This document shows positions 7,925-63,400 of a stretch of 64,000 nucleotides of DNA, piece by piece. Within the stretch, counting starts at the first letter, position 1; each line of letters opens with the position of its first letter. Under the pieces are notes generated by a model. It searched no databases, was not told the origin of the DNA, and worked only from the letters and a program-made list of their open reading frames with translations. A program made the position numbers and the translations under genes. Source of the stretch: Kiritimatiellia bacterium (GTDB taxonomy: Bacteria > Verrucomicrobiota > Kiritimatiellia > RFP12 > UBA1067). The stretch is taken from positions 6,051 to 70,050 of the forward strand of contig JAZLMG010000023.1 of assembly GCA_045598585.1 (NCBI GenBank), written 5' to 3'.

Positions 7925-7948
7925 GTTGCCTGTTCCCTTTTCTACCAC

Positions 7949-17022: not shown

Positions 17023-19614
17023 ATGATGAGAAAGGCACTTTCATTCCTAGGGTGCTTGTTGTTAAGCATAGGTTCGGTAGCCGCCGAGCCTAGCAAATGG
17101 CTTTCTTTCAACGATTATTGGTTCGTTGAGAAAGGTGCTTCGACAAGTACAACCATCGACGGCGAACAGGTCGTAGGGCGCACGCTAACCGCGGGCGATA
17201 CGATAGCGTATTGCACGTTTAAACCGGCGCAAACGCAAGAAGTCGAATCGGATGAAGAGGATGAGGAAGGTTTTCCTCTTTTGACCGATGCGCTCGTTTT
17301 CAACTCGACCGATTTGCTCGACCCTATTCCTGACGGTAGCGGCTACTTCGTCAGGCTTGAGGCGAAGTTCGCCCCGCGCACGACACCGAAAGTGTCCGCT
17401 AGCAGAGACTTCCCTTATCGCACGCTCCTTTATGTTAAGGAGGGCGGTGAGGAAGGTCCGAACCATCTCGCGTTCTTGGAGCGCGAAGATGGTGCGGTGG
17501 CCGCGAAAGAGGTAGTAACCGATATCGAAGCTACCGCTGATACACTCCTCAATATTACTGTCCAGATACTCAAAGATAAAACTTTCCGCGTTTACGTCGG
17601 AGAAAATGAAGTTACGGTTGGCGGTACGACTTATACCTACCTATCGCTTCAAAATGGCGAAGGCAATGGTGAAGGCAGCTACTATTATGCCGAATATTTA
17701 CATTCGTTTGCCTTTACCGGAAGCGTGGAATTTGACAGTATCGAGTTCACGACCGTCAATCCGTTTACTAAGACGGTAACTTCGATACCGTTTAAGTTCG
17801 AATACGATTCCGCCGCGCTTTCCGAGGTAGCCGGTGTCGAGGATACGCTCGATCTCTCCGTAACTAAAACTTATACGGTAACTTTTAAGCGCGATACGGA
17901 TCAATACGATTTCGAGGAGCCTACGCTTACCGGCAATAGTGCGAAGATTGACGAGACTACGGATGATTCGATTACTTTCACCGTTGCCGACACGTTGACC
18001 GACGATAACAAGCTTATTTTGACGCTTCCCTCGAAGGCCTACTTCTTTACCTTCGGTAACGAGAAGTACGGTACTTTCGCTGAGGTTATCGCGGCCGCAT
18101 CGAAAAGCGGGAATCCGATTCAGCTCACTCACGACATCAATCTCGACGGTCCTGTCACGCCAGGCCCTCAGGCGGAAATTACCGATAATCAAGATGTCGT
18201 CATTGACCTTAACGGTAAGACGATTGTCGGTCTTAATTATCGCAAAGATGCCAATGACGCGGCGGTTGTGAACCGCGGCAAATTGAAGATCGTCGACTCC
18301 GATCCGGAGAAGCGGGGTAAGATCGTCGCTAACGGTTATGCGCTTTCCGTGTCGCCCACTTCCGACACGCTCGCGCTCGGAAACTATAATAACGAGACGA
18401 TCATCAAGGCCGGCACATTCGTCGGCATCGTCACCAACGTCGCGGGCCGCATTCAGATCGACGGCGGTAGGTTCTTGAAGGTTTACGGTGCAGATACCGC
18501 TGCCGACTTTTATCTTCGTCGTCAGGCGGGCGTTTACATTGGTGCACGTTTCGATAACGCAATATTCACGACTGAAGAAGTAAATGGTTTCTCGCGAGAC
18601 TTTTGGACCGGTAATGAGAATACTGACTTAATCGAATTCCGCGTCGAAATTCCCTCGTATGCCACGCTTTCTCAGAAGCTTTATACGAAGACCGCTTATG
18701 ATGATGGCTCGCGTCCCGAGGTCACTGCGGCGGGCTACAAGGTCGACGAAGTCAATTGGCTCGCGCCCGACGAATATGGTATTGTCCGCGGCGAACTTAC
18801 CGCCGAGAATTATACTGTTTCTTACGATACCGGAGACAAGGCCGAGGTCTTGTCGTCCGCCCCGACTACTTACACGGTCGACGCTGAGCCCATGGAACTC
18901 CCGACGCTTACCAACGAACTTTGGGAGTTTGTCGGGTGGTATGTTAACGGCAAGGAGATCAAGACGCTCGGCGAATTCGCGACCTTCGATGGAACCGGCG
19001 TACTTCCCGACGATTTGATTTTCGACAACCTCACGCTCGTTGCGAAGTGGAAGCCGATCGAGAAGTCTTGGACGAATGCGATGAAGGGGTCGCGCTATAT
19101 GGCGATGTCCGAGGCGAACGGTTTTTATACCGAATCCACCAAGTGGCAATTCACGATCCCCTCCAATAACGGCTTCGAGTCGGGAGACTCGATTAAACTT
19201 AAGTCGATCACGCTTTCGACGGTTAATGCCTCGCCCAATAATCTCGCTCGTATGGCGCCGACGCTTCGCCTTGCAATCGGTGGCGCGACATACGATGCGA
19301 CTGCCAAGCTCGAGAAGAACGATTCTACCGAGTTCGATTACTTTGAAACGAACTTCGGCTTCCGTCCGAAAGTCGTTTACTCGTTTGATGCCCCTGTGAC
19401 GCTTACCATCGGCGCGCCGTATACGTTCACGCTTGTGAACGCCGAGGGCGCTCACCATCCCGTCCTTCTTCGCTTGGTTAAGAAGACGAGCGATACCGAA
19501 TTTCAGCTTATCGGCACGATCGGCAATAGTGTCCCGTCGCCCGATTATCAATCTTACGTTCCCATGTACGAAATCGTCGGTGAAGCTACCGATGTAATTG
19601 AAGGAGCCGAATAA
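17023..19614 (+). CDS. secreted 863-aa protein with beta-helix-like segments and one Listeria-Bacteroides (Flg_new) repeat
   Basis: Signal peptide MMRKALSFLGCLLLSIGSVAA. Contains an …IDLNGKTIVGLNY…AVVNRGKLKIVD… motif. Flg_new-like unit: YTVSYDTGDKAEVLSSAPTTYTVDAEPMELPTLTNELWEFVGWYVNGKEI. Its stop overlaps the pseudopilin ATG by 1 nt (TAATG). Confidence 0.85.
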   Translation: MMRKALSFLGCLLLSIGSVAAEPSKWLSFNDYWFVEKGASTSTTIDGEQVVGRTLTAGDTIAYCTFKPAQTQEVESDEEDEEGFPLLTDALVFNSTDLLDPIPDGSGYFVRLEAKFAPRTTPKVSASRDFPYRTLLYVKEGGEEGPNHLAFLEREDGAVAAKEVVTDIEATADTLLNITVQILKDKTFRVYVGENEVTVGGTTYTYLSLQNGEGNGEGSYYYAEYLHSFAFTGSVEFDSIEFTTVNPFTKTVTSIPFKFEYDSAALSEVAGVEDTLDLSVTKTYTVTFKRDTDQYDFEEPTLTGNSAKIDETTDDSITFTVADTLTDDNKLILTLPSKAYFFTFGNEKYGTFAEVIAAASKSGNPIQLTHDINLDGPVTPGPQAEITDNQDVVIDLNGKTIVGLNYRKDANDAAVVNRGKLKIVDSDPEKRGKIVANGYALSVSPTSDTLALGNYNNETIIKAGTFVGIVTNVAGRIQIDGGRFLKVYGADTAADFYLRRQAGVYIGARFDNAIFTTEEVNGFSRDFWTGNENTDLIEFRVEIPSYATLSQKLYTKTAYDDGSRPEVTAAGYKVDEVNWLAPDEYGIVRGELTAENYTVSYDTGDKAEVLSSAPTTYTVDAEPMELPTLTNELWEFVGWYVNGKEIKTLGEFATFDGTGVLPDDLIFDNLTLVAKWKPIEKSWTNAMKGSRYMAMSEANGFYTESTKWQFTIPSNNGFESGDSIKLKSITLSTVNASPNNLARMAPTLRLAIGGATYDATAKLEKNDSTEFDYFETNFGFRPKVVYSFDAPVTLTIGAPYTFTLVNAEGAHHPVLLRLVKKTSDTEFQLIGTIGNSVPSPDYQSYVPMYEIVGEATDVIEGAE

Positions 19615-20456
19615 TGAAGAAGGCCTTTACGCTTATTGAACTTTTGATCGTCATCGGCATTCTCGGTGTTTTGATGGGTGTTATTCTTTCTCAGTTCGGC
19701 GGTGCGACCGAAAGCTCGCGCGCGGCGGTTTGTCAGTCTCACATGCGTAACCTCGCTCAGGCCTGCCAGACCTACGCGATGTCCTGCAATTATTATCCGC
19801 GCGCCGGAACCCAGGAATTCGTTGACTATGATTCCAATACCGACCAGATGGTCTACGGTATTAAAGTCGGTTGGATTGCCCGTCTAGGCGACAAGGACAA
19901 TATCGGCCGCGTCGATTCCGGGCGTAAGAGCGGCAACTATAAGAGCGGTCTTACCATGAACGAAGATCAGATTGTCGAGTCGATCACGAACGGATGTCTT
20001 TACGCGACGCTCGGTAAGGATCGCGCTTCCTATACCTGTCCTCATGAAAAGGGCGCCGGTTGGTCGTACGCGATGAACTGCGACTTCGGTTTCACTCCTC
20101 CCGGAGAGAGCGATGCGACCGGTTCGAGGAACCCGGGCGCTATTTACTATAGCTCGATCAGCCGCGCCGACCGCAAGCTTCTCTTCGCCGAAATCGATCG
20201 TACGGATACTTCCGACGCGGCGAACGATCCGGTTCTTGATTACGATAACGAGCACATCGGCTTCAATCACAAGAACGGTAAGCTCACCGTCGCGCATGTC
20301 GTTTTCGCAGATTGTCACACCGCTCGCCTTGCACGTCCGAAGAACGCTTCGGAGAGCAAGCTTAGGGAATTGACCGAATGGCTCTGCCAGGGCTATGACG
20401 TCACTTACGTGGGCGGTCAATACGAAAAGGTGGAAGACTCCGCCACGGAAGATTGA
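19614..20456 (+). CDS. pseudopilin / type IV pilin-like protein with a prepilin-type N-terminal methylation domain
   Basis: N-terminus MKKAFTLIELLIVIGILGVLMGVILSQ is the class III signal (FTLIELL with Glu5), with Ala instead of Gly at -1. The C-terminal NHKNGKLTVAHVVFADCH resembles the H-X9-DG-type tail of PVC DUF1559-like pseudopilins. Confidence 0.85.
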   Translation: MKKAFTLIELLIVIGILGVLMGVILSQFGGATESSRAAVCQSHMRNLAQACQTYAMSCNYYPRAGTQEFVDYDSNTDQMVYGIKVGWIARLGDKDNIGRVDSGRKSGNYKSGLTMNEDQIVESITNGCLYATLGKDRASYTCPHEKGAGWSYAMNCDFGFTPPGESDATGSRNPGAIYYSSISRADRKLLFAEIDRTDTSDAANDPVLDYDNEHIGFNHKNGKLTVAHVVFADCHTARLARPKNASESKLRELTEWLCQGYDVTYVGGQYEKVEDSATED

Positions 20457-20458
20457 TA

Positions 20459-44100: not shown

Positions 44101-47100
44101 TCGATCAACTATGTGACCGGCGAAGTTACGATTGATTTCGAGTCCTTCTTCGATGGCTCTATGGTCTGGCAGACCGATATGTCGCGCACAGGCCGCGAAT
44201 GGAACCCGGGCGACGGCTACCAGATCTCGTCCGAATACTACTTCGACCAGGCCTACTTCGTCCTTGAATGGGACGCGACGCCTGAATTCGGCGGCTCGAA
44301 GTCGATCTATCGTCTCAACGACGCGAACGAGGGATTCCTCCGCGAAGGTAAGGCCGACTTCACCGTCTTCGTCGACCAGAACGGTAACGGCGAATACGAC
44401 GAGGGCGAACCTCGCGGCACTCAGCACGATGTTGAAATCGGCTGGGATGTTGTCCGCGGCGTCAAGATCAACCTCGCGAAGTCGACGACCGACCTCTCCA
44501 ACGCGAAGCTCGAACTCATCGCCCCGACGGCTGCGGCCGACGCGGTCGTGACGACCGGCTCGCCGATCTTCCGCTTCAAGTCGCTCGATGGCTACGCCTC
44601 CTACGCTTACACGGTTAAGAAGGGCGACGAAATCATCGAAGAGGGCACGAAGCTCATTAATGGTTCTGCCGCGTTCGAACAGAACTTCCGCTTGACGAAG
44701 CCGCTCTCCGAAGCGGGCGAATACACCTGGTCGGTCATGATCGGTAAGACCACGGCTACCGCCTCGTTTGTCCTTGCCGAGGTCGCCGATTGCACCGAAT
44801 GCGGTTCGATCGAAGTCTCGACGAAGTACTTCGGTCCGAAGTCCGGTAAGACGATCGTCCGCGTCTATGACTCGGCCGACTTTACGGGCACCGTTGTTGG
44901 CGAAGCGACTGCCGACTCTGCGAACTCGATCGTCAAGATCGATCGCATCCCCGCGGGTGACCACTATGTCGTCGCCTTCATCGACGATAACTTGAGCGGC
45001 GAGCGCAACGCTTACGAAAGCTGGGGCTATGTCAACTATCTCGGCGAGAACTCACTCATGACCTTTGTTCCGAAGGCCGTCACGGTCGAAAAGGCGAAGA
45101 CAGCCGCCGCGGTTCTCTACATCGAAGATAGCGATCTTAACAATAACGGCATTGCCGATTCGCTCGAAGATCCGTCGCAGTTCGTGATGTATGACGAGGT
45201 TGAAGAACCCGCCGATACCGATGGCGACGGCATCCCGGACGCATGGGAGAACGAGCAGGGTCTCGACTCCGAAGACGCCTCCGACGCCGCTTCTGCGGTT
45301 GAGGGCGATGTGATGGCCTATATCGAAGTTCCGATGTACCTCGTTACGACCGAGAAGGGTACTTACTTGACCGACAAGAAGCTTATCGTCGGCGATGATG
45401 TCAATCGTATTGCCGGTACGACCTTCTACAGCGTCTATAAGTATGGCTCGCTCAGCAATAGCCCGTATGGTCGCGGTGCTGCGGTGGCGGCCGAAGGTAC
45501 GATCTCGAAGATCGAACCTGTCACGGTCGCCCTCGTCCACAAGCAGGTCTACGATAAGTACGGCTTCAACTCGAAGACGGCGAATCCCTCGATTCCCGCG
45601 AGCGAGCTCGTCAACTCGAAGCCCTTCACGGCTCTCGATAAGTACCTCGCTTCCGCCTATGCGAAGGCCAATGGTTTTGAGGTCTCGCTCCGTGCGGGTG
45701 AAGCTGATGTCGATCTCGATGGTATCCCGGATGGTTGGGAACTCTATGTCGGCCTTAACCCGAACTCCTTCGAAGATCGTCTCTCCGATGGCGACGGTGA
45801 CGGCCTCGCGGCTATCGACGAATATAACGGCGGTAACGTTACCGACCCGAATAACGATCATACTCTCGATCCCGGCATTTCCGATAACTTCGTGATGCTC
45901 TACAACCTCACGAAGGCGAGCGCCGATGACGATGGTGACGGTCTTTCGAACTACGCCGAATACTTGATTACCGAAGTCTTCCGCTTTAAGGAGCTTAATC
46001 CGAAGAATGCCGACTCCGACGGTGACGGCGTCTCCGACTACTTCGAAAAGGTCGGTAACTTCTACCTCGGTGAAGTCTTCGCTGACCACGACCAGATCGA
46101 CGATCAGTGGGAACTTGCTCACGCGACGCTCCCGGGCGCCGATAAGATCTTCGCCAACAGCTCGATCTTCGATCCTACTCGCGATGAAGATAACGATGGT
46201 TGGTCGAACTACGCTGAATTCAAGGCGGGCACCGATCCTCGTGGCGAGTTCACTATCGGCCTTGACAACTACACCGTTGCCGAGTATCCGATTCCGCTCG
46301 TGAAGCTCGATGTTCTTGATAATGTGAAGTCGACCAAGGTCGGCGCGCTCAAGATCGTCGCTTGGAACGATGAAAAGGATCCCAACATGACCGGCGTTCC
46401 GGACGCGATCTGGACGATCGGCTCCGGCTCCGAATCCTCGGGCTCCGGCACTGCCGGCTCGACCGGCGCTCAGACGCTTAACGAATCCTCGCGTTATATC
46501 GGTCAGATTCCTATGGGCGGTATCAAGAGCTTCTACATCGGACCCGGCTCCGTCGCGCCTACCTCGATCGAGATTCAGTTCAACGATCCTGCCGCGATCA
46601 AGAACTTCAGCGAAACCTCCGCTGATGACGAGAAGGTCAACGAGAGCGAAACGCTCGATGCTACGTTCGGTTGGTTCGTGGCGATCAAGGATAACGGTCT
46701 CGGCGATTTGATCCTCGGCGGTACGAACGGTCGTGCGGTCGGTAAGATCGACTACTCGACCGGTTACATGATGATCGACTTCGGCGATCCTACCTTCGAT
46801 ATCCGCCTCGTGGGTAACGAGTACAATCCTTCGTCGACGGATACGACGGTCACGCCGATCAATCCTCGTAACTGCCACGCTCTCGTCAGTTGGAAGGCGA
46901 CGAAGCTCTCGAACTCCGTCTCGGGAACTTATTACCTCGCTGATCCCGACAAGGTCGTTGATGGCAATAGCCGCGGCCGTCTCCGTGAAGGCAAGAACAC
47001 GTTCATGGTCTTTGTCGATACCGAGGCCGGCTCGTCTGAAGGTGATGACACCTTCGGCGACAAGATCGGCTTCACCGTCGGCGAGCCCATGGGCATCGTC

Positions 47101-52313: not shown

Positions 52314-53033
52314 ATGAAGAAGATGATGTTTGCTATGGTAACGCTTCTTGCCGCGACGACGGTTATCGCCGCGACTCCCAAGAAGTCCGGTGCGAAGCGC
52401 TCTGCCGCGAAGCCTGCGGCTGCCGCCGAAGCCGATGCTCCCGCGATTGAAGGTCGCGAAGGTCAGGTCTCGATCTCGGCACCCGTTCGCCTCGGTCGTC
52501 AGGCCTGCTTCCCCGCTCCTCAGCTTCAGGGCCAGTCCTCCGTCGGTCAGGTCTTCAAGAAGCCGCGTAGTTGGATCGTTCTCGAAGCGAAGTACGAAAC
52601 CTTTGCGAAGTGGCAGGATCAGCTTACCTTCACGTGGCACGTTCTTCTTGACTCGAAGAGCGCCACCGAGAATAAGGGTGGCGAGGATATCGCGCCTTAC
52701 AGCTATTTCACGACTCAGATCAGCTGCATGAACGTCCCGAAGGGCTTCCATGTTTCTTCCGCTGTTCTTCACCCGAGCTACCTCGAGCGCTTCGGCGAGC
52801 CGAAGGCCGTCGGCGTCGTCATTACCGATAAGAATGGCGCGGTTGTTGGCGGTGACAGCTGGAGCGAGGTCAGCGGCATCAAGTCGGGTACACTCTTCTG
52901 GGACGATCCGAAGATCATGGAAGCGACGAAGGATGGCGCTCCGATGATCGAGCGTCGCACGGGTCTCGTCGATCGCGCGAAAACCATTTGGGGTCTCGTC
53001 AATCCTAACGACTACGAAAACACGGTGCTTTAA
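52314..53033 (+). CDS. secreted hypothetical protein, first gene of the pilus-like cluster (positional equivalent of Akkermansia Amuc_1102)
   Basis: MKKMMFAMVTLLAATTVIAATP signal peptide, then an A/P/K-rich linker and a ~170-aa globular part. It starts 17 nt after the kpsF stop. I recognise no family. Confidence 0.7.
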   Translation: MKKMMFAMVTLLAATTVIAATPKKSGAKRSAAKPAAAAEADAPAIEGREGQVSISAPVRLGRQACFPAPQLQGQSSVGQVFKKPRSWIVLEAKYETFAKWQDQLTFTWHVLLDSKSATENKGGEDIAPYSYFTTQISCMNVPKGFHVSSAVLHPSYLERFGEPKAVGVVITDKNGAVVGGDSWSEVSGIKSGTLFWDDPKIMEATKDGAPMIERRTGLVDRAKTIWGLVNPNDYENTVL

Positions 53034-54679
53034 TGAAAAAGATTCAAACTCTTAACATCGGCTCTTCGTCGGTTCAGCTCGCCGAGTACGAACTCGGTGG
53101 CAAGGGATCGATCAAGCTCGTCAATTATGGCGTAGCTAAGCTCGCTGCTCCGCTCGACAGCGGCAACGCTTCGGCGATTCTTTCACCGGCGATTCTCGAG
53201 ATCGTTCGTGAAAAGGGCATTCGCCCCGGCAATATCGCCGTCTCCCTCCCCGGTCAGATGGTCTTCCCGAAATTCGCCGCGATTCCTTTCGCCGGCGGTC
53301 AGGATAAGTTCGACTCGATGGTTAAGATGGAAATCGAGCAGAACATCCCGTTCCCGATCGACGAAATGGTCTGCGATACTCAGGTCTTGGGAGATACTGA
53401 GTCGGGCGATAAGTCCGTCATGATCATCGCCTCGAAGCTTGATCAGGTCGAACCCATCACGAGCGCGATTTCCGCGTGTGGATTCTCGCCTGTTCTCGTC
53501 GATGCCGCACCGCTCGCCGTTTCGAACGCGCTCCATTTCAACACAATGGGTTCCGATGAGTGCTCGGTTATCCTCGACATCGGCGCGAAGACGTCTTCGC
53601 TTATCATTGTCGAAGGCGATAAGCTCTACAATCGCTCGGTTCCCGTCGCCGGCAATAACTTGACGCGCGAAATCGCCCAGGTTCTTGGTGTCGATCAGGC
53701 TGCGGCCGAAGAGCTCAAGATCTCGAAGGGCTATGTTGCTGCGGGTGGCGTCGAAGAGAATGAAGATCCTGAGGCCGATGCGATTTCGAAGTCCGCGCGC
53801 TCGGTTCTTTCGCGTCTTAACGCCGAAGTCTTGCGTTCAATCAACTTCTATCGCGGTCAGCAAGGCGGCGGTAATCCCACGAAGCTTTACATCACGGGCG
53901 GTACTGCGCTTCTTCCTCAGATCGCAGAGTTCTTCTCCGAGTCGCTCGGAATCGAAGTCGAATTCTTGAATCCTTTTGATCGCATCACGACGGGTGGCTC
54001 GGTTGATGCCGCCTCGCTCGAATCCGACATCGCTTATCTTGCCGCGTCTGCGGGTCTTGCGATTCATGCCGCTAGCGAGTCGCGTTATACGATTAACCTC
54101 CTTCCTCCCGCGATTATCGCCGAGCGCAAGGAAAAAGCTCGTATTCCGTTCGTGATCGTTTCGGCGGTTATGGTTATCGCGGCGGCGGTTTGCTGTTACA
54201 TCGGCGTTCTCCATCGCGGCAGCTCTCTCGCGGCTGAACTCGAAGCCGTCAACGCTCGCTCGACTGCGCTCGAGAATATCGAAAAGAAGATTCAGCTCGC
54301 TCAGAAGAAGGAAGCCGCTGCGACCAAGAAGGCCGAAGAGCTTAAGAGCTACATGCTTCGCCGAGGAGAGGGCGTTGTTCGTACGAACGCGATTCGCAAC
54401 TCGCTAGGCGACGCGTTTTGGATCGACTCGTTTGTCAGCAATCGTGCGACAGTTCGCGGTTGGAAGGACAAGGTCGACAAGGCCGTCCAGAATCACAACG
54501 AAAAGAACGGTGTTAAGCGCACTGCGCCCGAAATCGTCGCTACCCGCTTCGCATCGGCGACGGCGCTCGATCCCGACAACATCAAGATTACCGACATGAC
54601 CAAGCTCGGTAAGAACGGTGAAGTCGAACAGTTCGTTCTTGAACACTACTTCAAACCCACGGAGCCGAATCAGAAATGA
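53033..54679 (+). CDS. pilM: PilM-like actin-fold ATPase fused to a PilN-like transmembrane coiled-coil domain
   Basis: The PilM part is LNIGSSSVQLAEYE…, VLVDAAPLAVSNAL, ILDIGAKTSSLIIV, LYITGGTALLPQIAEFF. Then comes YTINLLPP…IPFVIVSAVMVIAAAVCCYIGVL (PilN signature plus a TM helix), followed by a coiled coil. Its ATG overlaps the upstream stop by 1 nt. Confidence 0.85.
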   Translation: MKKIQTLNIGSSSVQLAEYELGGKGSIKLVNYGVAKLAAPLDSGNASAILSPAILEIVREKGIRPGNIAVSLPGQMVFPKFAAIPFAGGQDKFDSMVKMEIEQNIPFPIDEMVCDTQVLGDTESGDKSVMIIASKLDQVEPITSAISACGFSPVLVDAAPLAVSNALHFNTMGSDECSVILDIGAKTSSLIIVEGDKLYNRSVPVAGNNLTREIAQVLGVDQAAAEELKISKGYVAAGGVEENEDPEADAISKSARSVLSRLNAEVLRSINFYRGQQGGGNPTKLYITGGTALLPQIAEFFSESLGIEVEFLNPFDRITTGGSVDAASLESDIAYLAASAGLAIHAASESRYTINLLPPAIIAERKEKARIPFVIVSAVMVIAAAVCCYIGVLHRGSSLAAELEAVNARSTALENIEKKIQLAQKKEAAATKKAEELKSYMLRRGEGVVRTNAIRNSLGDAFWIDSFVSNRATVRGWKDKVDKAVQNHNEKNGVKRTAPEIVATRFASATALDPDNIKITDMTKLGKNGEVEQFVLEHYFKPTEPNQK

Positions 54680-55704
54680 AGAAACCTTTGATTATTATGG
54701 CCTCGGTCGGTGGCATCGCGCTTGTCGCGGTCGCGCTTATCGGCTACTTGGCTTTTGCCGCTTACTCCGAACAGGAGGAAACGCGTGAGTCGATCGATTC
54801 GGCGCTTTCGAATGTTCAGCGCATCAACTCGCGCCCGGTCGCTCCGATCATGGACAGCGTCACGGCGATCGATGCGAACACCGCGACTCTCGAGAAGTGG
54901 TATGGCGACGCGCTCCAGCTCGTCTCCGTCGGCGATCTCGAAGTCGATTCTTCGCTTACGCCTTCGTCCTTCAAGGAAAAGCTCGTTGAAGAAGCCGCGG
55001 CACTTTCGAAAGCGCCCGGCAACGTCCTCGGCGCGATCGTGAAGGAAGGCTATGCGTTCGGTTTCGATCGTTTCATCACCGGTAGTGATCTTCCCGAAGC
55101 CGAAAAGCTTGCCGAGTATAGCCGTCAGTGGGAAGATATCAAGGTTCTTGTAAAGGCGCTTTCGAACGCGGGCGGTAGCGAGTTCGTCTCCATCGAAATG
55201 AAGGCCGTGCCCGAAATCTTGAAGGCGATCGGCGTTAACGTAGAAGACGATAAGGCCGCAGCGAAGAAAGATGATAAACGCGGCGGCCGCGCAAATCAGC
55301 GCAACAAGAAGAAAGCCGAAGAAGAGAAGCCGGTCGAGAGCTACTCGATGCAGGGTTACCATATCGTCTATCGCGCTCGTCCGCAGGCTCAGGTCAAGTT
55401 CCTTAACGAACTCGCTTCCTGCAAGCGCTTTGTGACGACGTTCTATTTGAACTTCGCGCACGAAGCCGATCCGATCGCGACTGTCCTCGCGCCCGAGAAG
55501 AAGTCCGCCGATACGTCGTCTGCTAAGAAGAGTCGTCGCGGCAAGAAGCGCGCTGAGGCCGAAGAAGCCGAGGTGACCGAGTCGAATGTGAAGGCGCCCT
55601 CGGGCATGGTTATCGATACCGTCAATGGCGGCGAACTCGTCGTTACGCTCGATCTTGCCACTATCGACTTCAAGACCAAGGCCGAAGTGAAGGAGGCTGA
55701 ATAA
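54676..55704 (+). CDS. membrane-anchored Amuc_1100-like / PilO-like protein
   Basis: 342 aa. N-terminal TM anchor (IIMASVGGIALVAVALIGYLAF), a helical region, a polybasic low-complexity insert, and a C-terminal beta segment (GELVVTLDLATIDFKTK). From memory, order and layout parallel Amuc_1100. ATGA overlap with the upstream gene. Confidence 0.75.
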   Translation: MKKPLIIMASVGGIALVAVALIGYLAFAAYSEQEETRESIDSALSNVQRINSRPVAPIMDSVTAIDANTATLEKWYGDALQLVSVGDLEVDSSLTPSSFKEKLVEEAAALSKAPGNVLGAIVKEGYAFGFDRFITGSDLPEAEKLAEYSRQWEDIKVLVKALSNAGGSEFVSIEMKAVPEILKAIGVNVEDDKAAAKKDDKRGGRANQRNKKKAEEEKPVESYSMQGYHIVYRARPQAQVKFLNELASCKRFVTTFYLNFAHEADPIATVLAPEKKSADTSSAKKSRRGKKRAEAEEAEVTESNVKAPSGMVIDTVNGGELVVTLDLATIDFKTKAEVKEAE

Positions 55705-56849
55705 TGAAGACCAAGGGTAATTTCCTCGCCGACTATTGGCATTTCCTCGTCTTGGCGGTTTCGTTCGCGATTCTCGCGCTTGGCGTTGTCTTTATGCTCT
55801 CTTCGCTCTCCGTCGATGCCGATCAGGCGATTCAGGAATCGCTCTCGATGGTCGATAAGAAGCATGTTAAGACCGGTGTTGCCGAAGTCGATATGACCGA
55901 GTACAATGCCGCGTACAAGAATACCTTGACGCCCGGCAAGATTCCCGAAATCGCCGAAGGTGCCGCGAGCTTCTTAGGCCCGGAAAGCCGTGTCTTCTGT
56001 GAACAGGGCGAAGCCGGCAAGGAGCCGAGCTGCGGCATGCCGATTCCGTTCGGTTCGAAGGAGTGCCCCTTGTGTGGCGCTTTGCAGCCCGGCGAAGTCC
56101 AGGCGAACAAGGCTGACGGCGATGAAGACGGTCTTCCCGATGAGTGGGAGAAGAAGTATGGTTTGAGTCTCGCCGAAAATGACGCGAACGGAGACCTCGA
56201 CAATGACGGCTTCACGAACATGGAAGAATTCCTCGCGAAGACGAATCCTGCCGATCCGACGAGCCATCCCCCCTATGTCGCTTCGCTTACCGTCCTTCCT
56301 CAGGTTACCAAGGTCGAAGTTCCGTTTGACTTGAAGCGCGTTCTTGAAATTCCCTCGGGCACTCGTTTCGTCTTCCGCGATCCGAACGCCGAGACGATTA
56401 AGTACGGCAAGAAGGTCAAGGGCGTCGATCACGAATGCGTCGTCGACAAGGCGAAGCCCGAGGCGGTTGCGATCGGCACGACCGGTTATACGCTCAAGTC
56501 GTTCGAAAAGAAAAACGTCAAGAAAGCCAACAAGCGCGTCAAGGGTCTCATGGTCGATACGGTAGTTTTCGAGGTCAAGGCCGAACGCGATAGCGACAAG
56601 AAGGAAGTTGCGTTCAGATACGCGGAAGGGGAGAAATCCAAGCGCGCGGTTATCGATACGCAGGCGACACTCGTCTATAATCGTGGCGGCGTTAAAGAAA
56701 TTCCCGTCGTTCCCGGAACCGAGTTTGAGCTCTCGAATGGCGCCAAATACAAGGTTTTATTGATTGAAACCGCGCAAACGGGCGTTAAGGTCATAGTCAA
56801 AGACTTGACTTCGGGCGAAGAAACTACAATTTCGGCACTTGAACAATAA
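55704..56849 (+). CDS. membrane-anchored protein with a 4-Cys zinc-ribbon-like motif and two TSP type-3-like Ca-binding repeats
   Basis: 381 aa. TM helix (FLADYWHFLVLAVSFAILALGVVFML). C-x10-C-x10-C-x2-C (FCEQGEAGKEPSCGMPIPFGSKECPLCG, nt ~55995-56078). DGDEDGLPDEWEKKYGL…DLDNDGFTNMEEFLAKTNPADP (nt ~56112-56270). A 1-nt start/stop overlap with the upstream gene. Confidence 0.8.
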   Translation: MKTKGNFLADYWHFLVLAVSFAILALGVVFMLSSLSVDADQAIQESLSMVDKKHVKTGVAEVDMTEYNAAYKNTLTPGKIPEIAEGAASFLGPESRVFCEQGEAGKEPSCGMPIPFGSKECPLCGALQPGEVQANKADGDEDGLPDEWEKKYGLSLAENDANGDLDNDGFTNMEEFLAKTNPADPTSHPPYVASLTVLPQVTKVEVPFDLKRVLEIPSGTRFVFRDPNAETIKYGKKVKGVDHECVVDKAKPEAVAIGTTGYTLKSFEKKNVKKANKRVKGLMVDTVVFEVKAERDSDKKEVAFRYAEGEKSKRAVIDTQATLVYNRGGVKEIPVVPGTEFELSNGAKYKVLLIETAQTGVKVIVKDLTSGEETTISALEQ

Positions 56850-56861
56850 TCTAAAATATCG

Positions 56862-56867
56862 TATAAT
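56862..56867 (+). promoter_or_regulatory. possible internal -10 box TATAAT upstream of the secretin gene
   Basis: cGTATAAT in the 44-nt gap. AAGAGGAG at 56876-56883 and the ATG at 56894 follow. Confidence 0.3.
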
Positions 56868-56893
56868 ATCCACATAAGAGGAGTGGGACTATT

Positions 56894-59800
56894 ATGATTA
56901 AAATTAAGACTCTTGTCGCAGTCGGAGCGGCCATGACGCTTACCGTCATGTCGGGCAATAGCTTTGCCCAAGACGATCTCGATGACCTTTTGAAGGATCT
57001 CGAGAGTGAAGCTGTAGCGGAGGCCCCGGCCCCCGACGAAGAAGCTGACGCTGATGAAGCGGAGGTGGAAACGGCCGAACCCGAAGAAACTGTCGAGGAA
57101 GAAGCTGCTGAAGCTGAAGAAGCTACTGATGCGGAAGAACCCGCTGAAGAAGCTGAAGAGCCTGCCGAAGCTGCTGAAGCCGAGGATGCCGAAGAGGCGG
57201 TCGAAGAAGACGCCGTCGACGCCGACGCGGAAGAGCCTGTCGAAGCTGAAGAAGCTACCGACGCGGAAGAACCCGTTGAAGCTGAAGACGCCGACACCGA
57301 CGAGGCTGAGGAAGTCGCCGAGCCCACTGAAGCGACTCCCGAGGAAGAACCCGCCGAAGAAGCTGACACCGACGAAGTTGAGGAAGTCGCCGAGGCTACC
57401 GAAGAGCCCACTGAGGCGACGCCCGAGGCCACTCCCGTCCCCGAGACCGTCCCCGCTCCTGTTGCCGACGATGAAGTCGACGAAGAAGTAGACAATGTCC
57501 TTTCCCTCTTGAGCGAATTGTCTGCCGAAGTCGACGCCAAGCCGGAGCCTGCTGTTGCTGAACCCGCTCCCGCTCCTGCCGTCGAAGAACCTGCTGTTGC
57601 TGAAGAAGAGCCCGCTCCTGCGCCTGCCGCCAAGCCCGCGAAGAGCGCTCATCCCGATGCCGAACTTCTCGCCAACGTCCGCGCGACCGAGAAGATTCGT
57701 ATCGAAGCCCTCGAGATGCAGGCGAAGCGTACGATGAAGGATGCCCAGACCGCGATGAAGTCGGGCGACTATACCGAAGCCGTTCGTCAGTACTCCCTTG
57801 CGTACAAGTGGCTCGGCGATCGTCCCACTAACCGCGACCTCAAGAAGATCTGCGAACATGGTATTGCCGAAGGCCTCTATCGTGAAGCTTGCCAGAACTA
57901 TGAACTCGGCCGCCGCGAAACCGCGAAGTCGATTATGCAGGAAGCCGTCAAGATGCGTCACCCGAAGGCCGCGAAGACCTTGGAGAAGTGGCTCACGACC
58001 GATGAAGAAAGCTTCCGCAAGCCCGACCTCTCCGAAATCACCCACGTCCGTAATGATGCCAAGTACAAGGTTGAGCGTTCGAACATCCGCAAGCACCTCA
58101 AGCGTTCGCGCCAGTACCTCGCCGTCAAGGACATCGATAAGGCGCTTGAAGAGTGCGAACTCGTCATCGTCAACGATCCTTACAATCAGGAAGCGCTTAA
58201 GCTCCGCTCCTCGATCTTGAAGAAGAAGGCCGCCATCCTCCAGCAGGAGCGCGATGTCGCTCGCGAAGGTATGATTGCCGATGTCGATCGCGTTTGGCGT
58301 CCGTTGTATGCTCCGAACTCGACCCAGCTAGACTTCGCTCCCGTCGAAACCCAGAAGGTTCAGATCGGTGAAGATCCCGAGCGCACGATGGAGCAGGACA
58401 TCGAAAAGCGCATGAAAGAAATGCGCCTTCCCACGATCTCGTTCAAGCCGCCGGCCACGATCATCGATGCCATTGACTTCTTCCGTCAGGCCTCGAAGGA
58501 CTATGACCGTCCCGATATCCCGATCGAAAAGCGTGGTTTCAACTTCGTCCTCAAGACCCCCGATCAGGTTCAGGCTGCGGTCGCGTCCTCGTCCGACGAC
58601 GATAGCGATGACTTCTCCTCGACCGATAACGAAGAGGAAGTTGGACCTTCCGTCACTGGCGTCCCCGTCATCCCGACGATCACCGCGAGCGACATTTCCT
58701 TCTATGAAGCTCTTAAGCTCGTCACCGATCAGGTCGGCTACAAGTTCCGTCTCCGTGGCTCGATCATCATGATCATGCCCAAGACGATGTCGATCGATGA
58801 ACTCCTCACCCGCAACTATAACGTTCCTGATTCGCTCTCCGAACGCGTCACTAGCGCTTCGAGCGATATTAAGGAAATGAAGAGCTCTGGCTTCGGTGGC
58901 GGCTCTTCGAAGAGCTCTGGCGATGATGACGAGAATCAGGAACGCGACTGGAAGGATACTTTCAAGCAGCTCGGCGTTGAATGGCCCGAAGGTTCGTCGA
59001 TCATGTACATCAAGTCTCTCGGTAAGCTCCGTGTCCGCAACACGAGCGAGAACTTGGCGCTCATGGAACAGGCGCTCTCCGAACTCGGCGGCGTCGTCAA
59101 GCTCATCGAAATCGAAACCCGCTTCGTCGAAGTTTCTCAGGAAGACTTGAACTCGCTCGGCTTCGAGTGGATTCTCAACAGCGACTACAACCTCGACGTC
59201 GGCTCTAAGCTCGGCAAGGCGCTCGGTGTTCGTCACGCTGGCAATATCACGACGGGTGGCACGACGACGACCGAAATCGTCCCCGTTACCCAAAATGGTC
59301 AAACTACCTACCAGTATCGTGAAACCACCACGGGCGGTGTCACCGGCTGGCAGCGCGGCGGTGATACCCGTAACGTCAACATCGGCGCGATGGGTGGCTC
59401 CTCCGACTATGCTAACGGCAATCGTTACCTCTCCCAGACGGGTAACCACGTCTCCGGTCAGGGTCAGTCGAACAACGACCAGTTCATGCGCGTCAATGCC
59501 TTCCTCGGCAATGCTGACCTCTCGATGATTCTCCACATGCTCTCGCAGCGTAGCGATACGGACCTCCTCTCGGCTCCTAAGGTCGTCACGAAGTCCGGTA
59601 CCGAAGCTACGATCAAGGTCGTGACGGAGTACATCTACCCGACTGATTATAATGTTCAGCTCCAGTCGAGCTCGAGCTCCTCGGGCAACAACGGCGGTAG
59701 CCAGAGCGCGATTCTCGCGATCGTCGAACCTGAAAACTTCCAGACCCGTCCCGTCGGTGTTATCTTGACGGTCACCCCGACCTACACCGAAACGAACGGC

Positions 59801-60388
59801 GGCTTGATTGACCTCGAACTCAATCCTCAGGTCGTTGATGAGCCGACTTGGAAGAACTACGGTATGAAGATTCCGTATTCGGGTAATAGCTCCCTCCAGA
59901 ACTTCGAAGGTATCGGCGACATCTTCTCGGGTCTCGGTTCGATCTTTGAACAGCTCGGTACGGGCTTAAGCGACGCGATTCGCGAAACCTTCGCGACGAA
60001 GGCGCTCGACTCGGCTTCCAACGCTCTCGATGGTCTCACCCGTTCGAACTCCGACAACCTCACCTATTACGATGCCCCGATGGAACAGCCGTTCTTCCAC
60101 GTTCGTGAAGTTTCGACCTCCGTCTCCATCAACCCGGGTTCGACGGTTGTTCTCGGCGGTCTCATCACCGAACAGCGCAAGGCGATGGACGACAAGGTTC
60201 CGTTCCTCGGCGACCTTCCCTTCATCGGCCGCTTGTTCCGCTCGCACGCCGAGCAGACGGTTAAGCGTAACCTTCTCATCTTCGTAACCGGCCGTCTCAT
60301 CACCCCGAGCGGTCGTGAAGTCCGCACGAATGACGCGGTCGATAACATGACAGACGATGAGATCAAGGCGGCGCCTTCTGCCGACTGA
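56894..60388 (+). CDS. secretin (GspD/PilQ family) with a long polyacidic N-terminal extension and a TPR-like region
   Basis: 1,164 aa. Signal peptide MIKIKTLVAVGAAMTLTVMSGNSFA. The C-terminal secretin domain has …LLSAPKVVTKSGTEATIKV…, …VLGGLITEQRK…DKVPFLGDLPFIGRLFRS…RNLLIFVTGRLI. Confidence 0.92.
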   Translation: MIKIKTLVAVGAAMTLTVMSGNSFAQDDLDDLLKDLESEAVAEAPAPDEEADADEAEVETAEPEETVEEEAAEAEEATDAEEPAEEAEEPAEAAEAEDAEEAVEEDAVDADAEEPVEAEEATDAEEPVEAEDADTDEAEEVAEPTEATPEEEPAEEADTDEVEEVAEATEEPTEATPEATPVPETVPAPVADDEVDEEVDNVLSLLSELSAEVDAKPEPAVAEPAPAPAVEEPAVAEEEPAPAPAAKPAKSAHPDAELLANVRATEKIRIEALEMQAKRTMKDAQTAMKSGDYTEAVRQYSLAYKWLGDRPTNRDLKKICEHGIAEGLYREACQNYELGRRETAKSIMQEAVKMRHPKAAKTLEKWLTTDEESFRKPDLSEITHVRNDAKYKVERSNIRKHLKRSRQYLAVKDIDKALEECELVIVNDPYNQEALKLRSSILKKKAAILQQERDVAREGMIADVDRVWRPLYAPNSTQLDFAPVETQKVQIGEDPERTMEQDIEKRMKEMRLPTISFKPPATIIDAIDFFRQASKDYDRPDIPIEKRGFNFVLKTPDQVQAAVASSSDDDSDDFSSTDNEEEVGPSVTGVPVIPTITASDISFYEALKLVTDQVGYKFRLRGSIIMIMPKTMSIDELLTRNYNVPDSLSERVTSASSDIKEMKSSGFGGGSSKSSGDDDENQERDWKDTFKQLGVEWPEGSSIMYIKSLGKLRVRNTSENLALMEQALSELGGVVKLIEIETRFVEVSQEDLNSLGFEWILNSDYNLDVGSKLGKALGVRHAGNITTGGTTTTEIVPVTQNGQTTYQYRETTTGGVTGWQRGGDTRNVNIGAMGGSSDYANGNRYLSQTGNHVSGQGQSNNDQFMRVNAFLGNADLSMILHMLSQRSDTDLLSAPKVVTKSGTEATIKVVTEYIYPTDYNVQLQSSSSSSGNNGGSQSAILAIVEPENFQTRPVGVILTVTPTYTETNGGLIDLELNPQVVDEPTWKNYGMKIPYSGNSSLQNFEGIGDIFSGLGSIFEQLGTGLSDAIRETFATKALDSASNALDGLTRSNSDNLTYYDAPMEQPFFHVREVSTSVSINPGSTVVLGGLITEQRKAMDDKVPFLGDLPFIGRLFRSHAEQTVKRNLLIFVTGRLITPSGREVRTNDAVDNMTDDEIKAAPSAD
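57008..57645 (+). repeat. low-complexity E/A/P/D/T-rich region (~210 aa) with imperfect ~40-bp DNA repeats
   Basis: Example: GAAGCTGAAGAAGCTAC(T/C)GA(T/C)GCGGAAGAACCCG at ~57108 and ~57243. GACACCGACGA(G/A)G(C/T)TGAGGAAGTCGCCGAG occurs twice. The peptide is EAVAEAPAPDEEADADEAEVETAEPEETVEEEAAEAEEATDAEEPAEE…. Confidence 0.85.
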
Positions 60389-60401: not shown

Positions 60402-63400
60402 ATGCCGATTAAGGCGATACTAAAGCTCCTGCGGCGCACATTTATCTTGTGCGCCGCGCTTTCTTTCTCCGCACCGCTTTATGCGGAGAATGCGCCGGAT
60501 TTTCATCGTTGGAATACGCTTGTAGAAAGTGGCAGTACATTACTCTTCTATAAGACCGAAGCTCAGCTAAAGAACATAACGACCAATAACACGAGCGGTA
60601 GTACTTTGCTTCATGGTAAGAGCGAACTTAAGAGAGAGCCGGCCGCCTCGCCGCTAACCTATACCTATGTGGCTACTCCTGATCTCGGGTATCATTTCGC
60701 TCATTGGAGTTGCACGCCGATTCAAATTACAGAGGTTGAGTCCTCCATTTATCCTTTCTGTTATGGCGAGAATCCGGAGCTTGTTTTTTATGTGAATAAG
60801 GGTTCCGACTCAAGAACGTTTAAGATCAATCTTTGCCCGCTCTTTGAACCTAATGCCTACACGATCAAATTTGCTGCGAATGGTGCATCGGGCTCTATGG
60901 CCAATCTCGCGATGACATATGATACGGCCAAGAATCTCACCGCCAACGGCTTTACCAAGACCGGCTATAGTTTCAAGTCCTGGCTCAATAAGGCCGATAA
61001 TAAGACCTATAATAATAAAGCATCGGTCAAAAATCTTACCTCCGTTAAAGGGGCGACGGTTACGCTTACCGCTCAATGGACTAATAACGTCTATACCGTT
61101 ACCTTCGATACTCGAGGCGGCTCGGACGTTTCCAAGATCAGTGTCCAATTCGATAAGGCCTATAAGGACACTATCGGTACCGCTTTCCCCGGCAGTCCCA
61201 CCAAAACTGGTTATAACTTTATGGGCTGGTCTCTCGAGAGCGACGCGTCCAGCGGCAATATTACCGGTGACTCGACCGTCAAGACTGCAGCTGATCATAT
61301 TCTCTATGCTACGTGGCAAGCTATTCCCTACACAATTACTCTCGATCGCGACGGCGGTAGTGGCGGTAGCGAGACTATTTCAACCGGTTTCGATGAACTG
61401 ATGCCGACTATTACTTCGCCCTCGCGACTCGGCTACAGCTTCGATGGTTATTACAAATTTAAGAACGGCTCCGGAACTAAGTACTATAACGCCGACGGAA
61501 CCGGTGCCCATGTTTGGGATGTAAACTCTTATAACTTCGTTGATACGCTTTACGCGCATTGGATTCCTAACACCTACACTATCGTTTTCGACAAGAACGA
61601 TTCCGATGCCACCGGAACAATGTCCGCTCAGGTAATGACATACGACAAGTCGGCCGCGCTTACGCCGAATGCTTATACGAAGAGCGGCTACGACTTCGCG
61701 GGTTGGACTTCCGATATGGGCGAGTATTCCGATAAGCAAACGGTCTTAAATCTTTCGTCCGAGAACGGTGCGATGATTACGTTAAAAGCGAAGTGGGCTC
61801 CGAAGGGCTATACGGTTAAGTTCGATGGTAACGGTTTCTCTTCCGGAACCATGTATCCTCAATCGGTCGCATATGAGGCCGTCGCTAAGCTTAAGACGAA
61901 CGCCTTCTCAAGGACGGGTTATACTTTCGGTGGTTGGGCGACAACCGCCGCTGGTGATGCCGAATTCGGTAATGAGGAGGAGATAAAAAATCTCGCCTCG
62001 CCGGGAGGAGAAGTTACGCTCTTTGCCGTTTGGACGCCGATCAAGTACAAACTCGCTTTCAATTCGTATGGTGGCGAAGGTAAAATGGATGAGATCGAGC
62101 TCACCTACGACCATGAGACCAAACTTCCCGCCAACACCTTTACTCGCGAACACTATGACTTCAGCGGCTGGAAACTCGATTCCAAGGATTATGCCGACGG
62201 AGCATCGGTGATTAATCTTACGACGAGCGAGACGACGCTTACTTTCTATGCTCAATGGACCGCTAAGACCTGCACGGTAACTTTCGATCCCGGCGAGAGC
62301 ACGATTGCGGTGGAAAATGCCACGAAAACAGTTCAGTATAATACTAAGTACGATGTACTCCCGACACCGGATGAACGACATGGCTACAACTTCATCGGTT
62401 GGCATCTCGAATCGACCAATTATTCGGGTCAGATTTATCCGACCACTTACGTAGGCCTAAGCACCGACCATACTGTTACGGCGATTTGGATGGCGAAGGC
62501 GGAGTTTCTGGTTTCGTTCAATGTCGACGGAGGTGAAGCGCTTGAACCGCGGAAGTATATCGGTGATTACACCTATGGTGACCGCGGACTCCCGACGCCC
62601 GTTAAGACCGGTTATACTTTCGTCAAGTGGCACTATGCGGGTAGTGAAGATGCGGTGACCGACTCTACGCCGATGCTTAAGAAGGATCATATGCTTTATG
62701 CTGCGTGGCAAGCGAATCAATATAGCGTTACCTTCGTTGCCGACGGCGAGACGTATGAAACGATTAACGAGACGTACGACTCGACCTATGCGCTTCCTGC
62801 GACCGATCCGGAGAAGGCGGGTTATACGTTCCTCGGTTGGTATACTGCCGCGACCGAAGGAGTGGAAGTGACGGCTGAAACCAAGGTCGCGATAACTGCC
62901 GCGCAAACTCTCTATGCTCGATTCGGTGCGAAGGAGTACAAGATCGTTTTCGATAAGAATCATCCCAACGCCGTTGCCGCGCCTGCATCCAAGACGCTTA
63001 AGTACGATGATGTATATACTCTTCCCGACTTTGCTGCGGAAGGCGAAGCTCATCCTAATCCCTCGTATCGTTTCGTCGGTTGGAAGCATAATCCCGAAGA
63101 CTCGTCCGATCCGCTTCCTGCGGGTACTGAAGTTTCGAAGCTTTCGACCGGTGATGCTTATATTTTCTACGCGATCTGGGAACTTGATCTCAATGACCTC
63201 TCCGCCGCGGCACATTGTAAGAATGCCGAAGTTTCCTCCGAAGATTGGGAGATCGTCGAAGGCGATCCGACTTCAATTCGCAGCAAGATCTCTGCGATCG
63301 GAGGTAACGCCGACGACAAGGCGTTGACCTTGGCGATTCGTGGCTCCGGCACCTTGTATTTCCTCGCTAAGCAATCTTCAAATATGAGCGAAAACCTGTC

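Follow-up and report, generated by a model that had tools for sequence, protein, structure and literature searches.

This analysis concerns five genes at positions 52314-60388 of a 64,000-nucleotide (nt) stretch of DNA (hereafter the window, meaning that whole stretch) from a Kiritimatiellia bacterium, contig JAZLMG010000023.1. The five open reading frames (ORFs), called on the window, lie on the plus strand as one co-directional cluster. To judge from their sequences, they constitute the Kiritimatiellae orthologue of the Akkermansia MUL2 locus, which runs from Amuc_1102 to Amuc_1098. The genes and the features recognized within their products are the following (aa, amino acids; TM, transmembrane).

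52314..53033, plus strand: gene for the 239-aa protein, with an ATG start; the NCBI record carries this 239-aa form
52308, plus strand: alternative TTG start of the same gene, which would give 241 aa
53033..54679, plus strand: PilM-PilN fusion, Amuc_1101-like, 548 aa, from the ORF and its PilM and PilN matches
nt 54092-54106, plus strand: INLLP motif of the 548-aa protein, aa 354-358
nt 54134-54223, plus strand: single internal TM helix of the 548-aa protein, aa 368-397, predicted from hydropathy
54676..55704, plus strand: Amuc_1100-family bitopic PilO/GspM-like protein, 342 aa, from profile and fold matches
55704..56849, plus strand: Amuc_1099-family bitopic protein in the pilP position, 381 aa, from NCBIfam and BLASTP
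aa 7-40 of the 381-aa protein: TM anchor, predicted from hydropathy
nt 55998-56075, plus strand: putative four-cysteine zinc ribbon of the 381-aa protein, C99-C124, from a weak zinc-ribbon match and invariant cysteines
nt 56115-56273, plus strand: TSP3 calcium-binding repeats of the 381-aa protein, about aa 138-190, above the Pfam cut-off
56894..60388, plus strand: outer-membrane secretin, Amuc_1098-like, of the PilQ/GspD class, 1164 aa, from PF00263
nt 56969-57658, plus strand: acidic extension of the secretin, aa 26-255, about 230 aa (30% Glu, 24% Ala, 12% Pro, 11% Asp)

The first four genes overlap at their successive junctions by 1, 4 and 1 nt, and the secretin gene is preceded by a gap of 44 nt. 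An initial annotation had given the same coordinates, order, overlaps and gap, and the ORF calls reproduce them all; its descriptions of the products as a secreted protein, a PilM-PilN fusion, a TM-anchored protein, a protein combining a TM segment, a zinc ribbon and TSP3 repeats, and a secretin are likewise borne out by hydropathy, Pfam and profile matches. The five-gene arrangement is not due to chance, because practically every one of 80 related loci has the same five genes in the same order. These loci, all from metagenome-assembled genomes of gut or rumen Kiritimatiellae, were gathered by scanning species-representative genomes with the PilM-PilN alignment, a scan that returned no Akkermansia locus. 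The order shared by essentially all 80 begins with ackA, pta and kpsF and continues through the genes for the 239-aa protein, the PilM-PilN fusion, the Amuc_1100-like protein, the Amuc_1099-like protein and the secretin. Identity to the window protein is 76-93% for ackA and 72-93% for pta, and within the cluster it is 44-66% for the fusion, 38-61% for the 239-aa protein, 30-41% for the 381-aa protein and 23-38% for the 342-aa protein, the fastest-evolving member among the 80 species. Of 58 informative loci, 34-40 have coaE and rho as the next genes after the secretin, an arrangement also seen in Akkermansia; that seven genes keep one order in two phyla speaks for common descent. Searches of the literature for pili in Kiritimatiellae gave nothing specific. 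The genomes bearing loci L024, L044, L047, L059, L062, L068 and L069 were deposited as Anaerovoracaceae, Faecalibacterium, Muribaculaceae, Gemmiger, Methanomethylophilaceae and Alistipes; such oddly named genomes carrying a Kiritimatiellae locus are probably mislabelled or contaminated bins.

The product of the second gene is a genuine PilM-PilN fusion, in which a predicted cytoplasmic, actin-like PilM domain is followed by a TM helix and then by a PilN-like periplasmic coiled coil and C-terminal part. Its residues 7-345 match PF11104 (PilM_2, 129 bits) as well as FtsA in Pfam, and it scores 158.8 bits against TIGR01175 (pilM), past the cut-off of 133. Kinship to Akkermansia is evident from the Amuc_1101_fam model (NF045709), which aligns over profile positions 5-508 of 608 with an E-value of 2.7e-111, its 373.3 bits falling short of the 650-bit cut-off, and from BLASTP against Amuc_1101 itself (28% identity over 446 aa, E 3e-52). 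On the PilN side, a 61-sequence profile of the C-terminal 203 aa finds as its best Protein Data Bank (PDB) match the PilN chain of Myxococcus xanthus (3jc8_Na, E 2.2e-7). The alignment spans the INLLP motif, the TM helix and the coiled coil, in agreement with a PilN assignment, and residues I354, N355, L356 and P358 of the motif are invariant in 15 homologues. A fused PilM-like domain, TM segment and PilN-like part is also the architecture of GspL.

The third product, of 342 aa, is placed in the Amuc_1100 family by profile and fold comparison, and its predicted fold appears PilO-like. It begins with an N-terminal TM anchor predicted by hydropathy, which leads into a helical stretch and then into a ferredoxin-like alpha/beta core that two basic low-complexity inserts interrupt; the last element is a beta strand. 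Direct pairwise comparison is blind to this relationship: BLASTP of the 342-aa sequence against Amuc_1100 gives no match, single-sequence phmmer against the PDB returns nothing, and a nine-sequence profile returns nothing relevant, the similarity being found by profile and fold only. The Amuc_1100_fam model (NF038287) matches over profile positions 10-324 of 326 with an E-value of 6.6e-17, although its 61.9 bits do not reach the 180-bit cut-off; it also matches 65 of 67 orthologues, and three of the 67 match GspM. The best PDB matches of a profile built from 67 orthologues are chains of Amuc_1100 (6lad and 6kny, E 7e-4), and hhalign of that alignment against the real Amuc_1100 gives a probability of 92.7% (E 4.4e-7). 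Pfam already places PF28028, named Amuc_1100, on an identical database protein (P0001); no more than 12 homologues in the database are close enough to the 342-aa protein in their sequence words to be found, and all of them carry PF28028. Foldseek searches with an AlphaFold2 (AF2) model, built from only nine sequences, put Amuc_1100 in all ten of the best PDB positions (E 1e-5 to 1e-4, target TM-score 0.53-0.63). Next come the PilO proteins of M. xanthus and Pseudomonas aeruginosa (3jc8_Oa, 2rjz and 5uvr), at weak E-values of 0.065-0.3 obtained from a low-confidence model. The initial annotation had likened this product to Amuc_1100 through a shared anchor, helical part, low-complexity insert and terminal strand; all four are present in both proteins, and the NCBIfam, hhalign and Foldseek results uphold the likeness at the level of homology.

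The last gene of the cluster encodes a secretin whose predicted parts are a signal peptide, the acidic extension, a tetratricopeptide repeat (TPR) region and the C-terminal secretin domain. PF00263 matches at 115 bits, accompanied by weak TPR matches. As between the two classical secretin types, the NCBIfam scores are 115 bits for GspD and 109 bits for PilQ; no AMIN domain was matched by Pfam. The Amuc_1098_fam model (NF042912) scores 432.5 bits (E 2.9e-129) against a cut-off of 750, which it does not reach. BLASTP aligns aa 265-1146 with residues 59-885 of Amuc_1098 (28% identity over 929 aa, E 8.5e-87), and the TPR-containing N-terminal region is common to the two proteins. Since the alignment begins only at aa 265, the acidic extension is extra relative to Amuc_1098, and the spread of orthologue lengths, from 1012 to 1252 aa, suggests that it is variable.

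Between the Amuc_1100-type protein and the secretin lies the gene for the 381-aa protein, the one product of the cluster that clears the cut-off of its Akkermansia family model: Amuc_1099_fam (NF042425) gives 71.1 bits against a cut-off of 50 (E 1.2e-19), with aa 142-362 matching the model, and BLASTP against Amuc_1099 finds 25% identity over 245 aa (E 1.6e-9). The fold of the C-terminal domain is unassigned. All of 75 Kiritimatiellae orthologues keep its four cysteines, C99, C110, C121 and C124, while Amuc_1099 has no cysteine at all; TSP3 repeats are present in 75 of the 75. The zinc ribbon sits between the membrane anchor and the TSP3 repeats and would be periplasmic by topology. The protein is TM-anchored and not a lipoprotein, and gene position is the only point on which it agrees with PilP.

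The first product is divergent from its presumed Akkermansia counterpart, and we regard it as a probable member of the Amuc_1102 (MUL2A) family. Simple hydropathy finds a hydrophobic N-terminus at residues 3-22, and the AF2 model of the 239-aa form predicts an immunoglobulin (Ig)-like beta-sandwich at a mean predicted local distance difference test (pLDDT) score of 72, rising to about 90 in the core. Taken alone, the 239/241-aa protein matches nothing in Pfam-A (local copy), NCBIfam or the PDB; single-sequence phmmer of the 241-aa form against the PDB returned nothing, and BLASTP of that form against Amuc_1102 is weak (22% identity, E 0.067). The family as a whole is more informative. When a profile of 67 orthologues is aligned with the real Amuc_1102, hhalign reports a probability of 86.5% (E 4.6e-6) over a core that includes the common motifs KPxxW, LTFxF/W, Y.N(V/I)P.G and ASV.L.PS. 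The NCBIfam model Amuc_1102_rel (NF042424, cut-off 55 bits) matches 42 of the 67 positional orthologues, with a best E-value of 1.5e-8, and leaves the window protein itself unmatched, and Pfam assigns PF28178, named Amuc_1102, to close homologues, including a 91%-identical one (P0133). A 67-sequence profile of the 241-aa family run against the PDB nonetheless missed the Amuc_1102 structure 7DSZ, even at E-values up to 10.

To set these products beside a real Akkermansia locus, an Amuc_1100 peptide was taken from a PDB alignment, back-translated and used to scan metagenomes, which yielded 76 Akkermansia contigs. One of them (L130) encodes on one strand Amuc_1102 (238 aa), Amuc_1101 (612 aa), Amuc_1100 (317 aa), Amuc_1099 (337 aa) and Amuc_1098 (907 aa); all five products pass their NCBIfam cut-offs, and the first matches 7DSZ at E 4e-138. 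The gene order that the initial annotation had given for Akkermansia is hence correct, and the BLASTP and profile comparison that it proposed finds all five window products homologous to, and colinear with, those of the Akkermansia locus, the 239-aa protein being a probable homologue. The proposed comparison with published structures divided: Amuc_1100 fills the Foldseek top ten of the 342-aa model, whereas Amuc_1102 does not come up within the top 50 of the 239-aa model.

A classical pilus needs more than these five parts, and the initial annotation had stressed that the cluster lacks a motor ATPase, a platform protein and a major pilin. It was right that the window holds no ATPase, platform or peptidase: the domains of T2SSE/PilB, T2SSF/PilC and the A24 prepilin peptidase occur in no ORF of the 64 kb. 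A prepilin-type gene does, however, occur elsewhere in the window:

19614..20456, plus strand: prepilin-type protein, 280 aa, with the N-terminal cleavage/methylation motif MKKAFTLIELLIVIG, from PF07963 (N_methyl)

This protein scores 25.1 bits against TIGR02532 (cut-off 16.3) and has a GspG-like N-terminus (E 6.9e-9). Lying 32 kb upstream, it is a candidate partner of the cluster and no firmer than that, and its presence would imply a prepilin peptidase somewhere in the genome. It belongs to a run of three genes at 17023-28498 on the plus strand, in which it stands between an 863-aa secreted protein and a 2681-aa protein at junctions of -1 and -4 nt; neither neighbor has a family match, and the run may be a pseudopilin-associated giant-protein cassette of a kind common in PVC (Planctomycetes-Verrucomicrobia-Chlamydiae) bacteria. 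The lack of ATPase, platform and pilin is in any case not peculiar to this cluster. Classical pilMNOPQ operons lie apart from pilB, pilC, pilD and pilA, and the Akkermansia contig L130 also lacks these parts in its locus; their absence here is therefore to be expected. Of the two readings that the initial annotation had offered, one would expect a machine whose genes are scattered over the genome; a machine that works differently finds no support here.

Taken together, these observations make it likely that the cluster is a MUL2 orthologue encoding the scaffold that spans the envelope in a machine of the type IV pilus class, as a divergent pilM-N-O-P-Q module. In such a scaffold the inner membrane would be where the PilN part of the fusion pairs with the PilO-like 342-aa protein; the 381-aa product, in the position of pilP, would form the bridge to the secretin, and the secreted Ig-like 239-aa protein would act as a periplasmic, filament or surface subunit. 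Motor ATPase, platform, prepilin peptidase and pilins would be encoded elsewhere in the genome, as with the classical pilMNOPQ operons and in Akkermansia, for which further pilus and pseudopilus genes outside the locus are described (bioRxiv 10.64898/2025.12.30.696933). The same source likens Amuc_1100 to PilO/PilN.

Several results weigh against this interpretation. Four of the five products stay below the equivalog cut-offs of their NCBIfam models (373/650, 61.9/180 and 432/750 bits, with the 239-aa protein unmatched), and with homologues this distant a change of function is possible. Confidence in the AF2 model for the 342-aa protein is low, its mean pLDDT being 50.6. Foldseek with the 239-aa model leads to generic Ig-like folds only, such as ASF1 and GH2 domains, 7DSZ lying outside the top 50. 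Similarity to PilP or GspC is absent from the 381-aa protein and its 75 orthologues, and what assigns it a PilP role is the position of its gene and nothing else. The motor ATPase, platform and peptidase are placed elsewhere in the genome on data that cover the 64-kb window. Finally, a glycan-acquisition role for the cluster is one that we only infer, by analogy with Akkermansia and through secondary citations.

The alternatives differ in what they would have the same parts do. A type II secretion-like exporter or importer, with the products in the roles of GspL, GspM, GspC and GspD and the very large secreted proteins of the flanks as its cargo, would accommodate the PilM-TM-PilN fusion, whose architecture is that of textbook GspL, the match of GspM to three of the 67 orthologues of the 342-aa protein (E 9.5e-5), and a secretin that scores about equally on GspD and PilQ. 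The prepilin-type protein in the window, with its GspG-like N-terminus, would fit as well, as would the giant TSP3/LamG protein encoded upstream in nearly all loci and the large Flg_new proteins often found after the secretin. Yet the genes follow the order M-N-O-P-Q and not that of gspC-M, the fusion passes the pilM cut-off, and the best PDB match of its C-terminal half is PilN rather than GspL; after Amuc_1100, moreover, the fold matches of the 342-aa protein are to PilO. As for the supposed cargo, ackA-pta-kpsF separate the giant gene from the cluster, an adjacency that may amount to clade-level synteny, and in most loci no large gene follows, coaE coming directly after the secretin. On this balance a type II-like machine seems unlikely, if still the most credible of the competing machine types.

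The absence of an ATPase, platform or peptidase within 64 kb lends itself to a more radical proposal, a self-contained machine that dispenses with the PilB ATPase, the platform and a pilin bearing a class III signal, and in which the PilMN/O scaffold by itself assembles Sec-exported Amuc_1102-like subunits through the secretin. The 239-aa product does have an ordinary Sec-type rather than a prepilin signal, and the Akkermansia member of its family has been described as archaeal-pilin-like. Absence from a 64-kb window says nothing of the genome, however; classical pilMNOPQ operons likewise lack these genes, Akkermansia has more pilus and pseudopilus genes elsewhere, and the prepilin-type protein in the window would imply a prepilin peptidase in this genome, all of which makes the proposal very improbable. 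Least credible of all, and scarcely to be entertained, is the scaffold of a DNA-uptake (competence) pilus like comM-Q/hofMNOPQ. A pilMNOPQ-type order is common to competence systems, and the secretin gives weak matches to the HofQ model (E 4e-24, far under the cut-off), but domain scans of the window ORFs found no comEA, comEC or dprA nearby, Amuc_1102- and Amuc_1099-type components are foreign to competence systems, and the specific kinship of the proteins is to Akkermansia MUL2, reported for mucin acquisition. The pilus-class scaffold orthologous to MUL2 accordingly remains the preferred reading.

The cluster is part of a tightly packed co-directional array that extends from 17023 to beyond 64000. 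Immediately upstream, kpsF ends 11-17 nt before the cluster; downstream, a gene for a large repeat protein begins after 13 nt. Three further features lie in or beside the cluster, the first two of them pattern matches only.

56839..56867, plus strand: sigma-70-like promoter match, TTGAAC-17 nt-TATAAT, from a consensus scan (10 of 12 positions)
60430-60458, plus strand: terminator-like hairpin with an 11-bp stem, 8 G-C pairs and a T-rich tail
60402 to beyond 64000, plus strand: Flg_new repeat-protein ORF, at least 1199 aa, with a signal peptide and nine Listeria-Bacteroides (Flg_new) repeats

The promoter match, in the 44-nt gap before the secretin, may represent an internal promoter. The hairpin is the strongest of the region and lies 42 nt past the secretin stop, where the next ORF encodes its signal peptide; possible explanations are a partial terminator, an attenuator or a miscalled start of that ORF. 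The Flg_new ORF, which starts 13 nt past the stop codon of the secretin, continues beyond the window's end. A large surface-protein gene in this place is found in the window and a minority of loci, and the ORF seems to have been inserted between the secretin and coaE-rho. The region from 60.4 to 64 kb, with its many small ORFs, was also considered as an rRNA/tRNA region; it has no Rfam or tRNA matches and holds the one long ORF instead. On the other side of the cluster, a giant secreted protein of 6654 aa with TSP3 repeats and a Laminin_G_3 domain is encoded at 29116-49080 on the plus strand, ending 11 nt before ackA. Nearly all the related loci of Kiritimatiellae have a giant homologue of this gene in the same place, ahead of ackA-pta-kpsF and the cluster; this may reflect a functional tie to the cluster or mere synteny. 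Farther away, dnaN (6830-7948), dnaA (8192-9601) and mnmG/gidA (9785-11581) are grouped on the minus strand, and G+C content drops to 0.39-0.44 between 8 and 12 kb of the window, which is probably next to the chromosomal replication origin.

What the machine is for can be approached through Akkermansia. There the cluster is the MUL2 locus, reported to be required for mucin acquisition (bioRxiv 10.64898/2025.12.30.696933). The five Akkermansia proteins are described in the literature as abundant envelope proteins, of which Amuc_1100 activates TLR2 and Amuc_1102 is reported to be archaeal type IV pilin-like. By analogy, these gut glycan-degrading bacteria probably use the cluster to attach to host or dietary glycans or to capture them. 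In the literature MUL2 is reported as conserved among Verrucomicrobiales and less conserved among Chthoniobacterales, with Methylacidiphilales lacking it, and a 2026 survey of the locus covered Verrucomicrobiota orders only. The whole locus, including its coaE-rho neighbors, is now seen in at least 80 gut or rumen Kiritimatiellae species, a conservation from which an origin before the split of the two PVC phyla would follow. A bolder version of this idea holds that the locus specifies a PVC-wide ancestral apparatus of glycan capture or import that pre-dates the split of Verrucomicrobiota and Kiritimatiellota, with a filament or conduit of Sec-exported, Ig-fold Amuc_1102-type protein in place of pilins bearing a class III signal, with a non-canonical source of energy, and with the flanking giant TSP3/LamG adhesins possibly working alongside it. 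Vertical inheritance is argued in its favor because the order 1102-1101-1100-1099-1098-coaE-rho is shared; as a whole we think it improbable. Were it true, the fast-evolving Amuc_1100-like component would be a widespread host-facing ligand, of the TLR2 type, beyond Akkermansia. Among the host-active proteins of a next-generation probiotic none has been studied better than Amuc_1100, and its locus MUL2 has been tied to mucin foraging; the Amuc_1100-like surface or periplasmic proteins carried by other gut glycan degraders are candidates for host signaling and glycan capture.

Measured against known systems, the cluster resembles the pilMNOPQ operons of P. aeruginosa and M. xanthus in its M-N-O-P-Q order with the secretin gene last, in its PilM domain, in the INLLP motif, TM helix and coiled coil of its PilN part, and, more tentatively, in the predicted PilO-like fold of its third protein. 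It departs from them in the fusion of PilM with PilN, in a fourth protein that is TM-anchored, bears a zinc ribbon and TSP3 repeats and has no detectable similarity to PilP, and in an extra first gene for a Sec-secreted Ig-like protein. The secretins differ too: the N-terminus of classical PilQ carries AMIN domains, whereas the window secretin has TPR and acidic regions and no AMIN match. With type II secretion the cluster shares a GspL-like fusion of an actin-like domain, a TM helix and a periplasmic domain, a GspM-like partner (weak, from three orthologues) and a secretin of the GspD class; its gene order and best models are those of type IV pili, however, and no block of gspE, gspF and gspG-K is adjacent.

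The closest relative is the Akkermansia MUL2 locus. In both, five homologous genes are arranged identically on a single strand, and both have a PilM-like protein fused to a TM helix and a PilN-like tail, an Amuc_1099-type protein with the conserved motif D-x-D-x-DGFT..EE..KT.P.DP.SHP, and a TPR-bearing secretin; coaE-rho come after the secretin gene in Akkermansia as in the majority of the Kiritimatiellae relatives, and are reported in the literature as neighbors of Akkermansiaceae MUL2 loci. The two nevertheless come from different phyla, with identities of 22-28% or similarity at the profile level only, and the 1-4-nt overlaps seen here contrast with gaps of 29-71 nt in Akkermansia. Not shared with Akkermansia are the zinc ribbon, missing from Amuc_1099, and the ~230-aa acidic extension of the secretin, while the inserts of the Amuc_1100-like protein are rich in Lys, Arg and Glu here and in Pro and Ala in Akkermansia. 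The surroundings differ as well, with kpsF, pta, ackA and a giant adhesin-like gene upstream and the gene for the Flg_new repeat protein (at least 1199 aa) inserted after the secretin. The zinc ribbon, acidic secretin extension, translational coupling and different genomic context are peripheral variations on the Akkermansia theme. The cluster extends a known system and is not a new one: Pfam and NCBIfam models exist and already tag Kiritimatiellae proteins, and because these families are thus covered the practical gain is modest.

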